A DNA stretch of 24,107 nt from the NCBI GenBank assembly GCA_964507965.1, contig CAZDRC010000002.1:3261-27367 (forward strand), written 5' to 3'. A model generated the notes under the pieces. That model was given only the letters and a program-made list of their open reading frames with translations, did not search any database and was not told where the DNA came from. Positions 8,335 through 24,107 of this stretch are shown here, in pieces. The position numbers and the translations under genes are program-made. The stretch comes from an uncultured Candidatus Saccharibacteria bacterium. Its GTDB lineage: Bacteria; Patescibacteriota; Minisyncoccia; Phycocordibacterales; PALSA-1337. How positions within the stretch are numbered: position 1 is the first letter of the stretch; each line of letters opens with the position of its first letter.

Positions 8335-9309
8335 ATGTATAGGATAAGAGTAGCGGTTCTTCGTGGAGGACCAAGTAATGAATATGATGTATCACTCGGT
8401 ACGGGTGCTACTGTTCTACATAATCTACCTAGTGATATATATGAGCCACAGGATATATTCATCTCAAGAGATGGTATATGGCATAGGAATGGTCTCACTA
8501 CTAATATTCATAATATTTTCTCACATACAGATGTGATCTGGAATGCTCTGCATGGATATTATGGTGAAGATGGCAAGCTAGCACATATACTCGAGAGACA
8601 TAAGATACCATTTACTGGATCAGGTTCACTTTCTTCTGCTATTAGTATGAATAAACTTATGACCAAGGATGTTTTCAAGAAAAATAAAATAAAGACTCCA
8701 GAGCATAAAGTTATTGATAGTAAAGATAAAGTTTCTCCAGATCTTCTGAAGGAACTATTCCGATCATTCACTCTACCTTTCGTAGTGAAGTCTATATCTA
8801 GTGGATCCTCTGTAGGGGTTTATATTGTAAAGGATTTCAATTCTTTTGAAAAATCAGTAAATGATGCTTTTAAACATAGTGATACTGTGATGATTGAGGA
8901 ATATATTGCAGGTAGGGAAGCTACTGTTGGTGTAATAGATGGATTCAGGAATCAAGATATCTATACATTACCAGCTGTGGAGATACGACCTTTGAAATCA
9001 ACTTTCTTTGACTATGATGCGAAGTATACGCCTGGAATGTCAGAAGAAATAGTACCTAGTACATTCGATTATAATACGAAAATTGAATTGGAAAATATGG
9101 CAAGAGAAATTCATAAGGCATTGGGCCTACGTCATTATTCTCGTATTGATTTCATCGTAACTCCGAGAAGGGGAATATTCGCTCTTGAGGCCAATACTTT
9201 ACCTGGACTTACAGAAGCCTCTCTTCTACCGAAGGCTCTGTATGCTGTAGGTGGTACTATGCCGGAATTCCTACATCATGTTTTACAACTTGCATTAGAG
9301 GAAAAATAA
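8335..9309 (+). CDS. ddl: D-alanine--D-alanine ligase
   Basis: GGPSNEYDVSL, ALHGYYGEDG, GSSVGV, EEYIAGRE, FFDYDAKY, RIDF, EANTLPGLT. Confidence 0.95.
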   Translation: MYRIRVAVLRGGPSNEYDVSLGTGATVLHNLPSDIYEPQDIFISRDGIWHRNGLTTNIHNIFSHTDVIWNALHGYYGEDGKLAHILERHKIPFTGSGSLSSAISMNKLMTKDVFKKNKIKTPEHKVIDSKDKVSPDLLKELFRSFTLPFVVKSISSGSSVGVYIVKDFNSFEKSVNDAFKHSDTVMIEEYIAGREATVGVIDGFRNQDIYTLPAVEIRPLKSTFFDYDAKYTPGMSEEIVPSTFDYNTKIELENMAREIHKALGLRHYSRIDFIVTPRRGIFALEANTLPGLTEASLLPKALYAVGGTMPEFLHHVLQLALEEK

Positions 9310-9337
9310 TGTAAAATCATTAAACATAAGTATATAC

Positions 9338-9411
9338 GGGCCCTTAGCTCATCTGGCTAGAGCGCCTCATTTGCAATGAGGAGGTGGCAGGTTCGAGTCC
9401 TGTAGGGTCCA
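9338..9411 (+). tRNA. tRNA-Ala(TGC), CCA not encoded
   Basis: Cloverleaf: GGGCCCT/AGGGTCC acceptor stem, GCTC/GAGC D-arm, CCTCA-TTTGCAA-TGAGG anticodon arm, GCAGG-TTCGAGT-CCTGT T-arm. Confidence 0.96.
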
Positions 9412-9416
9412 CAGCA
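9394..9416 (+). repeat. Copy 1 of the tRNA-Ala 3'-end repeat (att-like) CGAGTCCTGTAGGGTCCACAGCA
   Basis: 23-bp identity with 9543-9565; 19-bp identity with 10490-10508. Confidence 0.95.
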
Positions 9417-9453
9417 GAATAAAAGAGAGACCAATGTCTCTCTTTTATTCTGC
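9414..9453. other. Perfect 18-bp hairpin immediately after tRNA-Ala
   Basis: GCAGAATAAAAGAGAGAC-caat-GTCTCTCTTTTATTCTGC. No following U-tract. Confidence 0.85.
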
Positions 9454-9506
9454 CTAAGTGACACAACTTGGACGAGAAAGGCGGAGGCGCGACGGCGCCG
9501 AGCCGG

Positions 9507-9543
9507 GGTCGCGCAAATTTTCAGCAGAAAATTATGCGTGACC
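9507..9543. repeat. GC-rich palindrome abutting att copy 2
   Basis: GGTCGCGCA-AATTTTC-agca-GAAAATT-a-TGCGTGACC. Confidence 0.8.
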
Positions 9544-9565
9544 GAGTCCTGTAGGGTCCACAGCA
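9543..9565 (+). repeat. Copy 2 of the tRNA-Ala 3'-end repeat
   Basis: Exact 23-bp match to 9394-9416. Confidence 0.95.
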
Positions 9566-9569
9566 AAAT

Positions 9570-10352
9570 TTAATAAATATAATAATACACACGAAAATCA
9601 TCTATTTTACCTCTGAAGTATCTACCTAATTCGATTCCAACACTACTATGTGATCTACCAATAGACGTTGGATTTCCACTCATATTTTCAATAGATAATA
9701 ATGGTACTGCTTCTTCTTTATCTAATTTACCATCTATAAAGAATTTATAACCTACTCCACCATCAATAAGTAGTGCTACATGAGTCCATTTATTTAAAGG
9801 GATAATTGCATTTGATGTTGGCCAGTAATTTGAATTTATAATGTTACTATAATCTCTTGTCATTATTCTTAATCTTCTTGATGGATCTATAGCAAAATAT
9901 AGAATACCTGGTAAACCATTTGCTATCATTCTATAGTCACCAGAGTGCTCTGTAGGATATATCCACGTAGTTATAAGTATTGCCCCCTGAGCGCCTCCGA
10001 CTAGATCTGCTCGCGCTCTCAAATCAGTTGTTAAAACATAATTTGTTCCATTGAAGTCTAAAGCATTCCTTAATATACCGTCTGTCCATGTTGGATTATT
10101 TATGAGACTGGCATCAGTTCCATCAGCAGTATTGGCTGTTTGTGATCCAGACCCTTCATCTAGAGATAACATAAGAATAGCATTTGCACCATTTATTGAG
10201 TGCATCTGTGTATGGAATGCTTGTCCTGATGCTATTCTAGCTTTTTCTCTTGCAGTATTTAGACTTGAAAGGACTACACTAGATAATAAACCAATTATAG
10301 AGATAACTACTAATAATTCAATTAAAGTGAAACCCTTATATCTATTTGACAT
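9570..10352 (-). CDS. Prepilin-type N-terminal cleavage/methylation protein with a LamG/concanavalin-A-like C-terminal domain
   Basis: KG|FTLIELLVVISIIGLLSSVV class III signal. LamG-like motifs ALDFNGTNYV, ITTWIYP, LNKWTHVAL, FFIDGKL, YFRGKIDDFRVY. Confidence 0.9.
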   Translation of the reverse strand: MSNRYKGFTLIELLVVISIIGLLSSVVLSSLNTAREKARIASGQAFHTQMHSINGANAILMLSLDEGSGSQTANTADGTDASLINNPTWTDGILRNALDFNGTNYVLTTDLRARADLVGGAQGAILITTWIYPTEHSGDYRMIANGLPGILYFAIDPSRRLRIMTRDYSNIINSNYWPTSNAIIPLNKWTHVALLIDGGVGYKFFIDGKLDKEEAVPLLSIENMSGNPTSIGRSHSSVGIELGRYFRGKIDDFRVYYYIY

Positions 10353-10489
10353 ATATATATATTATAGTATTAATATTTGTATTATACAAAGACTTACCCC
10401 TGTATGAAGTAAGAACACTTTTAAATGTGATGAATAAATTAAAGAAATAATCTATCGTCGAGGAGAAAGTTGGAGCGAGCGTAGGCGAG

Positions 10490-10510
10490 CGAGTCCTGTA
10501 GGGTCCACCA
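10490..10510 (+). repeat. Copy 3 of the tRNA-Ala 3' end, terminating in A-CCA
   Basis: CGAGTCCTGTAGGGTCCACCA. Confidence 0.93.
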
Positions 10511-10592
10511 CAATTGACTTTATCATATTAGGGTGTACTGTAATATCAGATTGACAATCAAACTTAACCGTAGAAATACAGGATAAATAGTT

Positions 10593-11531
10593 ATGAAACA
10601 TATACTTCGTTCACAGCAATTCGATAGATTTGCTTTAGAGAAATTATTCAAGGATACCGATGAACTTGGTGTCCAGTATGATCATCCTGAGGGAAGAACA
10701 GCATTGAGGAATGAGTGTGAAGGGAAGCTTCTCTTTGCTGTTTTTTATGAGCCATCGACACGGACAAGATTTTCATTTTGTTCTGCGGCGCATCACCTCG
10801 GTATGCATTCGATACAGACAGAGAATGCCAGAGAATTCTCTTCGGCAGTGAAGGGTGAGACTCTGGAAGATACTACAAATGCTCTCTGTCAATATGATCC
10901 AGATATTCTGGTTCTACGTCACCATGAGACCGGTGGTGCAGATAGAGCTGCTTCTATCGTGGATATGTATGACTATAGAACTTCCATAGTGAATGCTGGT
11001 GATGGTAGTGGACAGCATCCTACTCAGGCATTACTCGATCTCTATACTATACGTAGAGAGCTTGGTAGAACTCATGATATTACTGTGACTATCGGTGGTG
11101 ATCTAGTGAATGGTCGCACGGCCAGGTCATTGGTCTATCTTCTAACAAAGTACGAAAAGGTCAGATTTATTTTCATCTCCCCAGCGAATCTCAGAATGGG
11201 GGAAGACATTATTGCTCATCTTCAAGAACATGATAGTCCATTCGTCGAGACTGAGGAAATGGAATTGGCTTTGAGTACATCTGACATTGTCTACTGGACT
11301 CGTGTTCAGAAGGAGCGCGGAGGTGTGAATAGTACACTCAATCTACGTATTGGAATGCCGGAGATGCAAATGATGAAGAAAGATGCAGTCCTTCTCCATC
11401 CACTTCCTAGAGTTGAAGAGATAGCCAAGGAAGTTGATTCTGATCATAGAGCTGCCTATTTCCGACAGGTGAGGAATGGTATGCTCATACGCATGGCCTT
11501 GCTCAGGGATCTTTGTACTTCAGGGCGGTAG
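10593..11531 (+). CDS. pyrB: Aspartate carbamoyltransferase catalytic subunit
   Basis: FYEPSTRTRFSF, KGETLEDT, NAGDGSGQHPTQALLD, GDLVNGRTARS, YWTRVQKER, LLHPLPR. Confidence 0.96.
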   Translation: MKHILRSQQFDRFALEKLFKDTDELGVQYDHPEGRTALRNECEGKLLFAVFYEPSTRTRFSFCSAAHHLGMHSIQTENAREFSSAVKGETLEDTTNALCQYDPDILVLRHHETGGADRAASIVDMYDYRTSIVNAGDGSGQHPTQALLDLYTIRRELGRTHDITVTIGGDLVNGRTARSLVYLLTKYEKVRFIFISPANLRMGEDIIAHLQEHDSPFVETEEMELALSTSDIVYWTRVQKERGGVNSTLNLRIGMPEMQMMKKDAVLLHPLPRVEEIAKEVDSDHRAAYFRQVRNGMLIRMALLRDLCTSGR

Positions 11532-11549
11532 CCCAACTATTCAATTTAT

Positions 11550-11585
11550 GTCCCAATAGTCTTTATACTAGTTGGGACTTTTTTT
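11550..11585 (+). terminator. Intrinsic terminator of pyrB
   Basis: GTCCCAATAGT-ctttat-ACTAGTTGGGAC followed by T7. Confidence 0.8.
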
Positions 11586-11592
11586 AATTTAT

Positions 11593-11632
11593 AAAAAAAC
11601 ATACCCCCGAGCCTTGTGGGCAGGGGGGTGTG
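11593..11632 (-). terminator. Intrinsic terminator on the minus strand
   Basis: CATACCCCC...GGGGGTGTG stem with A7 at 11593-11599 (U-tract on the minus strand). Confidence 0.75.
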
Positions 11633-17734: not shown

Positions 17735-18274
17735 ATGAAGAACAAAAGCAACAATAATGCCTTCACCCTCATTGAACTTCTAGTAGTTATTTCTATAATT
17801 GGTCTGCTTTCTACTGTAGTGCTAGCAAGTCTAAATACGGCGAGAGGCAAGGCGAGGGATGCGAGACGTATGAGTGATCTGAATCAGATAAAGAATGCAC
17901 TCATTTTTTATTATGATAAATATGGGAATTATGTTTCAACGGGAAGTGGTTGTGGATGGCAAGGTGGAGGTTTAGGTTGGTTTAATGCTTCAAATGGTGA
18001 CCCATTATCATACCCAGCATCTATTACTTCATGCTTAGTCGGTGCAGGTTTTTTGCCTAGTGAAATTAAGGACCCTACTGGTAGTGTTTCTGGATCGACT
18101 CCAAGTAATACTGTCTATAGTTATATGAAATATGATTGTACTATTAGTGGTCAGCGAACAGTCTATGTATATGCTAAATTAGAGACATTATCTCAGAGTG
18201 CTACAGCTACTGATGGAACATGTGATTCAACATTAGATACAACTTATGGTATGAATTATTTTGTTAAAATATAA
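17735..18274 (+). CDS. Type IV pilin/GspG-like prepilin, copy A
   Basis: NA|FTLIELLVVISIIGLLSTVVLASL...ARDARRMSDL...DP; four Cys. Confidence 0.92.
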   Translation: MKNKSNNNAFTLIELLVVISIIGLLSTVVLASLNTARGKARDARRMSDLNQIKNALIFYYDKYGNYVSTGSGCGWQGGGLGWFNASNGDPLSYPASITSCLVGAGFLPSEIKDPTGSVSGSTPSNTVYSYMKYDCTISGQRTVYVYAKLETLSQSATATDGTCDSTLDTTYGMNYFVKI

Positions 18275-18283
18275 TATATATAC

Positions 18284-18826
18284 ATGTATAAAAACACATC
18301 CAAAGCCTTCACCCTCATCGAACTTCTGGTTGTTATTACTATTATCGGTTTACTTTCTACTATCGTGCTAGCGAGTCTAAATACTGCGAGAGGGAAAGCG
18401 AGGGATGCAAGACGTATGAGTGATTTGAATCAGATAAAGAATGCACTTATTTTTTATTATGATAAATATGGGAATTATGTTTCAACAGGTAGTGGATGTG
18501 GCCAGAATGATGATGGTTTTGGTTATTTTAATCTTAATTTATCAAATGATGATCCATTTGCATACTTTAAAAGTATTGCCTTATGTTTAGTCGATGCTGG
18601 TTTTCTACCAAGTGAAATAAAAGATCCCACTGGTGGTATTTCCGGATCAACCCCAGGTAATAATATTTTCAACTATATGAAATATGATTGTACTATTGAT
18701 GATCAACTGACAGTCTATGTATATGCTAAATTAGAGACATTACCTCAGAGCACTACAGCAACAGATGGAACATGTCAACCGACTTTAGATACGGTGAACG
18801 GTATGAATTATTTTGTTAAAATATAG
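18284..18826 (+). CDS. Type IV pilin/GspG-like prepilin, copy B (tandem paralog)
   Basis: KA|FTLIELL; colinear with copy A and has the same four Cys. Confidence 0.92.
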   Translation: MYKNTSKAFTLIELLVVITIIGLLSTIVLASLNTARGKARDARRMSDLNQIKNALIFYYDKYGNYVSTGSGCGQNDDGFGYFNLNLSNDDPFAYFKSIALCLVDAGFLPSEIKDPTGGISGSTPGNNIFNYMKYDCTIDDQLTVYVYAKLETLPQSTTATDGTCQPTLDTVNGMNYFVKI

Positions 18827-23900: not shown

Positions 23901-23973
23901 GCCACCTTAGCTCAGTTGGTAGAGCAACGCTTTTGTAAAGCGAAGGTCCCCAGTTCGAGTCTGGGAGGTGGCT
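23901..23973 (+). tRNA. tRNA-Thr(TGT), CCA not encoded
   Basis: GCCACCT/AGGTGGC acceptor stem, GCTC/GAGC D-arm, anticodon loop TTTGTAA, CCCAG-TTCGAGT-CTGGG T-arm. Confidence 0.95.
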
Positions 23974-24107
23974 CAGAAATGAGGTAAATGTGAATTGTTG
24001 TTAGAATTACTACTATCTAATCTTAGCTCGATAGACTTTTATAGTCGCAGTTTCTATTTTCTTATGCAGAATATCAATCTCACTATTTGTAAGAGTTTTA
24101 TCTAGTG

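Follow-up and report, generated by a model that had tools for sequence, protein, structure and literature searches.

How a single inverted gene for a pilus adhesin-like protein came to stand amid housekeeping genes behind a tRNA-Ala gene is the question raised by the locus analyzed here. The locus lies within a stretch of 24,107 nucleotides (nt), termed the window, from the genome (G000) of an ultra-small groundwater bacterium recovered as a metagenome bin of 530 kb in 64 contigs. The first-pass annotation of the window had described a tRNA-anchored, integrase-less stack bounded by copies of the 3′ end of the tRNA, here termed the tail, with a distal CCA-bearing copy that looked like a displaced original end, and this description held. 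Our analyses indicated that the three repeats are probably the boundaries of two stacked units belonging to a large family of non-autonomous tRNA-tail elements found in Paceibacteria-type bacteria of the candidate phyla radiation (CPR) and that an element of this family would account for the lone inverted gene.

A repeat search detected the tRNA-Ala 3′ end three times, at 9394, 9543, and 10490; the successive copies start 149 and 947 nt apart. The core common to all copies is 19 nt long, extending from C56 of the T-loop to the discriminator base plus one C. Copy 1 is the last 19 nt of the tRNA-Ala gene itself (9394-9412), and copies 1 and 2 are alike over 8 extra bases (27 nt, one mismatch). 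When all 530 kb of the genome were searched for the 19-nt tail, with a tolerance of two mismatches, only these three sites were detected, and the reversed-sequence control gave no matches. The sequence A-CCA was present only at copy 3 (10507-10510), with copies 1 and 2 reading A-C-AGCA. The repeat and genome-wide searches therefore agreed with the positions, and with the restriction of A-CCA to the distal copy, that had been reported initially. A metagenomic chimera joined via the shared tail could conceivably generate such a layout, given that the genome is a bin of 64 contigs and that tRNA and module repeats break contigs in the run assemblies. The repeat, however, is merely 19 to 27 nt long, and independent contigs from the source sample spanned 9384-9538 and 9511-11600 with no differences and at a depth of 16 to 19, compared to 23 in the flank. 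Pieces of the pilin gene were also found unaltered in contigs of two other samples, and an identical architecture was seen in hundreds of genomes. The match of the source-sample contigs at a flank-like depth indicated that the array layout is real, and an assembly artifact is exceedingly improbable.

DNA searches of relatives demonstrated that the GC-rich segment 9470-9550 matches many sites in other genomes of the order with 85 to 95% identity and that the stretch 10460-10495 likewise matches many sites in the genus. The matched sites lay directly downstream of varied tRNA genes (Trp, Leu, Ser, Glu, Asp, Val, Ile, and Arg) and had a common order, in which the tRNA is followed by a variable hairpin with A- and T-tracts, an arm antisense to the T-arm, a core, and then the last ∼19 bases of that same tRNA. 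In some copies the antisense arm covers the entire tRNA 3′ end (near-perfect over 19 to 21 nt). A covariance model of the 76-nt module, termed R1, was built in this analysis and used to survey related genomes. The window genome has two copies, one intact and one truncated (the latter matching over 10465-10506). R1 was detected in 37 of 45 genus genomes, with 0 to 14 copies each; in 126 of 151 sampled genomes of the order, representing 112 of 131 genera, with up to 28 copies; and, beyond the order, in 6 of 149 sampled genomes of the phylum, some of these matches scoring high.

The modules were tightly linked to tRNA genes. A tRNA on the same strand was located 27 to 75 nt upstream in 36 of 40 sampled genus modules, and as two of the four exceptions were cut by contig ends, the rule applied to 36 of 38 evaluable modules. 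Comparison of the tail with the adjoining tRNA at 35 loci gave a 19/19 match in 20 cases and 17 to 18 identities over the 18 to 19 positions compared in 10 cases, the tail being truncated in the other 5. Modules were also found after transfer-messenger RNA (tmRNA) genes. The window exhibited the same association, with a core located no more than 75 nt past a tRNA and a matching tail. Distal tails were followed by CC or CCA at several loci (L075, L088, L093, L094, L097, L099, and L103), while this was true of none of the proximal copies (0/35) in the same set, a distribution that fits displacement of an original, CCA-encoding end. At three loci (L046:2992-3079, L096:288-375, and L106:292-381), ARAGORN detected a tRNA-Ser with the unusual anticodon ACT (A34), in each case followed by an R1 module; at the first of these (genome G056), a normal tRNA-Ser(GCT) is located 1.5 kb upstream.

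An alignment of 14 cores folded as a three-way junction with double-sided changes in 15 of 24 pairs. Pairing was observed in 92.5% of the cells, compared to 27 to 43% when the partners were slid. An independent set of 41 matches produced similar values (88% versus 28 to 42%) and 201 double-change cells. One pair of the module displayed all four Watson-Crick combinations. Each unit ends in a folded, covarying site. One G·U pair was invariant in the 14-locus set and retained in 37 of 40 sequences, and there were 106 G·A cells at fixed tandem positions. As G·U combinations far exceeded A·C combinations (51 versus 3), it is the tRNA-sense strand that folds, either as RNA or as single-stranded DNA. 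Pairing of the upstream arm was stronger with its own tail (−15.5 kcal/mol) than with other tails (−10.6 kcal/mol), and its own was the better partner at 32 of 35 loci. A search of 9200-10700 against Rfam 15 with a cutoff of E = 10 detected nothing besides the tRNA with a better value than E = 0.3, all such hits being far under the gathering score. A hammerhead ribozyme was rejected by eye, since the junction strands do not fit. No description of the element family was found in the literature and no Rfam family corresponds to it, so that the family is apparently undescribed.

These structural data bear on an alternative in which the module is mainly a functional structured RNA, such as a processed 3′-trailer RNA, a guide or bridge-like RNA, or a T-arm/acceptor mimic on which RNase Z or the CCA-adding enzyme would act, with the tails forming part of the RNA and the arrays arising as by-products of recombination between tails. 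In its favor, strong covariation is restricted to the tRNA-sense strand, conserved G·U and tandem G·A pairs are typical of protein-binding RNAs, the upstream arm pairs with its own tail and in some copies is a near-perfect 19- to 21-nt antisense of the tRNA 3′ end, and the core is retained across most of the sampled genera. The copy number, however, ranges from 0 to 28 per genome, and 8 of the 45 genus genomes and 25 of the 151 order genomes contain none, which is unlike an essential RNA. A terminator-like hairpin between the tRNA and the module would limit cotranscription of the module, and the space between the two is too small for a promoter. Truncation affects many tails and modules, among them the module at 10465, and the RNA would have no match among Rfam families. 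We consider this explanation unlikely, though the strongest of the alternatives.

Within the window, unit 1 (9413-9561) is non-coding, and its whole-unit fold had a z score of −9.0 relative to shuffled controls. Together with the perfect 18-bp hairpin at its 5′ end (Table 1), this confirmed the earlier view of this unit as non-coding and palindromic. Hairpins of variable sequence equivalent to this one are present directly after the tRNA in most related loci. The module of unit 1 begins 63 nt past the tRNA-Ala gene, the tail match is 19/19, and the unit is identical at 114 of 149 positions to the second tRNA-Ala element of genome G001. Unit 1 is an intact element without cargo. The 8 nt after copy 2 (AGCAAAAT) are like the start of the first tRNA-Ala element of G001 (ACCA-GCAAAAT), and the truncated module near copy 3 is 89 to 94% identical to the 5′ halves of complete modules at loci L037 to L041. 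From its sequence, this module appears to have lost its 3′ half by deletion between two CGAGTC microhomologies. Unit 2 (9562-10508) would then be an older element of a second subtype, in which the pilin-LamG gene is placed between a AGCAAAAT start and a truncated module; most simply, the gene would lie inside this second, older element, which has lost its 3′ half. Copy 3 is probably the displaced original end of tRNA-Ala. Unit 2 had been presented as essentially one inverted gene with its own promoter and a stop codon 4 nt from the repeat. The single inverted open reading frame and a promoter-like site were indeed present, but the stop codon is 8 nt off the 19-nt core and directly adjoins the 27-nt repeat.

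Table 1. Positions in the window of the tRNA-Ala array and of the genes flanking it
Feature	Position	Strand	Basis and remarks
ddl (D-Ala-D-Ala ligase), conserved upstream flank	8335-9309	+	Pfam Dala_Dala_lig_C/N
tRNA-Ala(UGC), working gene	9338-9412	+	ARAGORN; Rfam tRNA, 62.9 bits; no encoded CCA
Perfect 18-bp hairpin with A-tract/T-tract flanks, bidirectional-terminator-like	9414-9453	.	Inverted repeat and fold; 5′ part of mini-element 1
5′ strand of stem P1, GGACGAG	9470-9476	+	Fold; pairs with first 7 nt of tail copy 2, tandem G·A
Conserved module with three-way junction core, intact copy	9476-9549	+	R1 model, 89.3 bits, E = 2.5e-28; covariation
Tail copy 2 (19 nt) plus 8 nt AGCAAAAT resembling element start	9543-9569	+	Repeat search
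Cargo gene P0001, type IV pilin-like with LamG/concanavalin-like domain, 260 amino acids	9570-10352	−	Pfam
Promoter-like site TTCATA-16-TATAAT	10381-10408	−	Consensus scan, 10/12 positions; pattern match only
Truncated module, genus-type variant	10465-10489	+	R1, 27.4 bits over 10465-10506; 5′ half retained
Tail copy 3 plus CA, giving A-CCA	10490-10510	+	Repeat search
pyrB-like aspartate/ornithine carbamoyltransferase, downstream flank	10593-11531	+	Pfam OTCace_N, OTCace

The same locus was compared across relatives, the ddl gene being visible upstream of tRNA-Ala in G016, G019, and G001. The locus had no module in G019, one module in G020, and two tandem modules in G001; in G016 it contained a module, module debris, an inverted NYN-domain gene, and a decayed module; and in the window it has a module followed by the inverted pilin gene and the truncated module. 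Variable cassette content, an expectation of the first-pass annotation, was thus found in each relative examined, and we regard the tRNA-Ala locus as a gene-swapping hotspot that lacks a recombinase. Elsewhere in the family there was evidence of movement of whole elements. An exact 183-nt match was detected in genome G059 between tRNA-Glu(UUC) and tRNA-Glu(CUC), which are located on different contigs with unrelated flanks. The identity starts in the 3′ part common to the two tRNAs, runs across the whole element, and stops just past the distal tail, which points to recent copying. This duplicate argues against strict codivergence of the module cores with their host tRNA loci.

Other arrays contained 0.6 to 3 kb of varied genes between the tRNA or first element and the distal module. 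The cargo, present in both orientations, included a UvrD-like helicase with Ldh_2, Schlafen/AlbA_2, NucS-like, HAD with SDR, and NYN proteins and methyltransferases. Repeats of the whole element (143 to 180 nt, 94 to 99% identity) bracketed the cargo in four of six arrays, while the bracketing repeats in the other two were shorter (104 to 108 nt, 84 to 94%). The left boundary of the repeats is located ∼5 to 10 nt ahead of the tRNA end, suggesting that the effective crossover is in the acceptor strand. Near-identical flanks consisting of whole elements can be read in two ways: either the cargo came with an element or native DNA was trapped between two insertions.

The cargo gene of the window, P0001, encodes an N-terminal prepilin methylation motif (PF07963 N_methyl, E = 1.5e-8) and a jellyroll domain of the Laminin_G_3 type (PF13385, E = 4e-18). 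The domain family is suggestive of a role as an adhesin or lectin. Homologues of P0001 (397 matches) are annotated as LamG-like or prepilin-type proteins of Paceibacterota, and the nearest of them, with 51 to 53% identity, are found in ordinary operons that lack a nearby module or array. A pilin gene travelling as a cassette was not supported on this basis. The varied cargo in other arrays (helicase, Ldh_2, Schlafen/AlbA_2, NucS-like, HAD, SDR, and NYN genes) and the module-free operons of the pilin homologues indicated that the element system is not specific for adhesins, and the original proposal of a system for swapping surface or pilus adhesin genes was, therefore, not sustained.

Further pilin-like genes were noted in this genome. 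Two adjoining small genes in the window (17735-18826), encoding 179 and 180 amino acids, both resemble the N terminus of the cargo pilin; the prepilin motif was confirmed in the first, and the pair probably belongs to the native pilus gene set. Additional paralogues of the cargo pilin are located close to tRNA genes on two other contigs (C46:988-1575 and C41:1940-2050). One of these tRNA-adjacent paralogues (35% identity) begins 145 nt past tRNA-Val(GAC), and the other is located within a Leu-Lys-Leu-Cys tRNA cluster; no R1 module or tail copy was found at either site in G000. A second tail duplication, at tRNA-Thr at the end of the window, was considered and rejected. Contig C34 begins within tRNA-Thr(UGU) and enters a pheS 3′ end that is similar to, but clearly diverged from, that of window positions 23901-24107, and CCA is encoded in the C34 version of the tRNA but not in the window version. 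This is a fork between contigs of a strain or paralogue with a diverged pheS, without an element.

The absence of a recombinase from the locus, as initially claimed, was substantiated by a Pfam scan, which detected none in the window. The sole Phage_integrase (PF00589) match in G000 was an Xer-like gene on contig C59, and there was no match to Resolvase (PF00239) in this genome. The Xer-like gene on C59 (1-1964) is interrupted at position 135 of the Pfam profile by ∼420 amino acids inserted in frame, within a 535-amino-acid open frame; the same interruption was seen in G042, G009, and G046 (frames of 726 to 760 amino acids) and looks like an intein or other inserted domain. Large serine recombinases were detected in 25 of the 45 genus genomes. 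Their genes were convergent on, and overlapped, tRNA or tmRNA 3′ ends at 7 of 10 loci. At L062, L063, L065, L068, L069, and L070, the recombinase genes (490 to 580 amino acids) end in a tRNA-Gln, -Asn, or -Glu gene or a tmRNA gene on the opposite strand, with overlaps of 31 to 180 nt. In G016, the arms at both distal tails of a complete, ∼25-kb serine-recombinase island at tRNA-Asn differ from those of the tRNA-tail elements, and the island gave no R1 match; it is followed by a 0.8-kb unit without an integrase. Scanning of the 10 serine-recombinase loci with R1 and filters off gave no match in nine. The tenth, L061 (G060), had a 39-bit R1 module between tRNA-Glu and the recombinase gene, which we interpret as an independent element that entered upstream of the island, indicating that the two classes share a target yet are distinct.

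These results also address the possibility that the units are decayed ends of islands driven by serine or tyrosine recombinases, kept by accretion, with the module as a conserved attP arm. The overlap of serine recombinase genes with tRNA and tmRNA 3′ ends in sister genomes is as would be expected of such an origin, and DsiB behaves alike at ssrA (PMC3146451); Tycheposon islands also accumulate partial tRNAs and degraded elements (bioRxiv 10.1101/2020.12.28.424599). The complete island, however, has other arms and no R1, nine of the ten recombinase loci gave no R1 match, and the genomes richest in modules (G058 and G059, 14 each) have no serine recombinase, even though G059 carries the 100% identical duplicate. 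Moreover, the core covaries in 126 of 151 genomes and must therefore be under selection rather than decaying. Decay of integrase-driven islands is accordingly rather improbable, less so only than an artifact of assembly.

We therefore favor the stacked tRNA-tail elements and propose the following model for their behavior. The minimal element, of ∼150 nt, consists of a terminator-like hairpin that directly follows the discriminator base, a short antisense arm against the T-arm and at times against the whole 3′ end of the tRNA, the 76-nt three-way-junction module, and a new copy of the last 19 nt of the tRNA. Units would enter at the tail by recombination confined to these 19 nt, with the likely crossover in the last ∼7 nt, such that insertion leaves a working tRNA and shifts the previous end, often the original CCA-encoding one, outward. 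The insertion itself would be performed in trans by an enzyme or repair pathway, and the module, folded on the tRNA-sense strand as single-stranded DNA or RNA, would serve as a recognition or guide structure. Repeated entry combined with deletion between tails may then have created a hotspot for accessory genes. It is possible, and we put this forward tentatively, that the module is the core of an undescribed insertion mechanism without an element-encoded recombinase, in which the folded single-stranded DNA or RNA presents T-arm and tail and directs host machinery to copy the unit into matching tRNA or tmRNA tails. Candidates for such machinery would be Xer, break repair by strand annealing, or tRNA-processing enzymes with a further partner.

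Several observations weigh against the model of mobile elements. The module may function in its own right as an RNA, a role that the conserved G·U and tandem G·A pairs would suit. The cargo may not have moved with the module and could be native DNA between two element insertions, the nearest pilin homologues being ordinary chromosomal genes. The tRNA-Ala of G001 is an exception to the displacement pattern, as it retains CCA. Empty-site or circle junctions were not found in the contigs of four runs, although this is weak evidence since contigs drop rare variants. No enzyme was found to be associated with the modules. The only co-occurring tyrosine recombinase, a kind of partner suggested by the first-pass annotation, was Xer-like and was present, usually as a single copy, in 40 of the 45 genus genomes with or without modules, including most of the module-free ones; a dedicated tyrosine integrase was thus rejected. 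Large serine recombinases were not supported as mobilizers, as their presence does not follow module number, G000 has none, and the G016 island lacks R1. Reverse transcriptases, detected in 62 of the 151 order genomes, were unrelated to module presence. One such gene in G000 (C15:2603-3214) is located in an open frame of 329 amino acids, a size typical of diversity-generating retroelements.

Genomes of CPR bacteria (Patescibacteria) are very small and contain few mobile elements of the classic kinds, which raises the question of how accessory genes are acquired and exchanged by these organisms. A structured element occurs in most genomes of this order, at tRNA and tmRNA tails, bounding variable genes for defense, metabolism, and the cell surface. 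Such tRNA-tail elements would make a major contribution to the plasticity of these genomes and would also constitute a structured nucleic acid of a new class. Were the module to guide insertion without a recombinase of its own, this would be a new principle of tRNA-gene targeting and would provide tiny genomes with an integron-like means of gene collection.

Among known systems, Tycheposons and other Islander-type tRNA islands share several features with the units described here: the tRNA is regenerated, a displaced fragment is located at the far end, newer insertions push older ones outward, and remnants accumulate, as with the tRNA fragments and degraded elements that pile up in Tycheposons (bioRxiv 10.1101/2020.12.28.424599). 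In the window, directly repeated tRNA 3′ ends likewise bound the insert and the tRNA gene is restored, but no integrase is present inside the insert. Islands of this type depend on a tyrosine integrase, whereas there is none in or near the units and the minimal units are non-coding. The units also resemble the ssrA islands of Dehalococcoides, in which DsiB, a CcrB-like large serine recombinase, is associated with 20-bp repeats starting from mid-T-loop and with tandem islands, some of them integrase-less (PMC3146451). The 3′ end of a tRNA-like gene is targeted in both cases, units are stacked in tandem, some lack integration genes, and a conserved motif is located just upstream of each repeat (PMC3146451). 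Unlike the Dehalococcoides situation, the window and its genome contain no serine recombinase (no PF00239), and R1 was absent from the arms of the one complete recombinase island examined, that of G016. Units here are also as small as ∼150 nt and have an antisense arm and a covarying three-way junction, features undescribed for the ssrA islands. Miniature inverted-repeat transposable elements do not provide a match, as the inverted arms of the units are locus-specific copies of each host tRNA and are not conserved between copies.

Elements of the CTX-φ type, which exploit Xer, have an attP of folded single-stranded DNA in which inverted and direct copies of the target flank a spacer, so that the strand folds to mimic the chromosomal site, and their integrated form keeps both target copies at one end. 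The units described here similarly have an inverted and a direct copy of their target around a spacer. They target a tRNA tail instead of dif, however, their spacer forms a conserved three-way junction, and in many copies the stem measures just 7 bp and contains a tandem G·A. The analogy with integron cassettes, drawn at the outset, was upheld in part. Integron cassettes, attC sites, and clusters of attC sites lacking integron integrases (CALINs) are, like the units here, small and mostly of one to three genes at a single site, the integrase may be lacking, and each unit ends in a folded, strand-specific structure. In this case, however, there is no IntI or attI, and the anchor is a tRNA tail. 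Integron cassettes are promoterless and in one orientation, while the cargo of these elements occurs in either orientation and the pilin gene is inverted with a promoter-like site of its own. Finally, attC is conserved in structure only, whereas the site ending each of these units is a three-way junction conserved in sequence and would differ from an attC-type hairpin.

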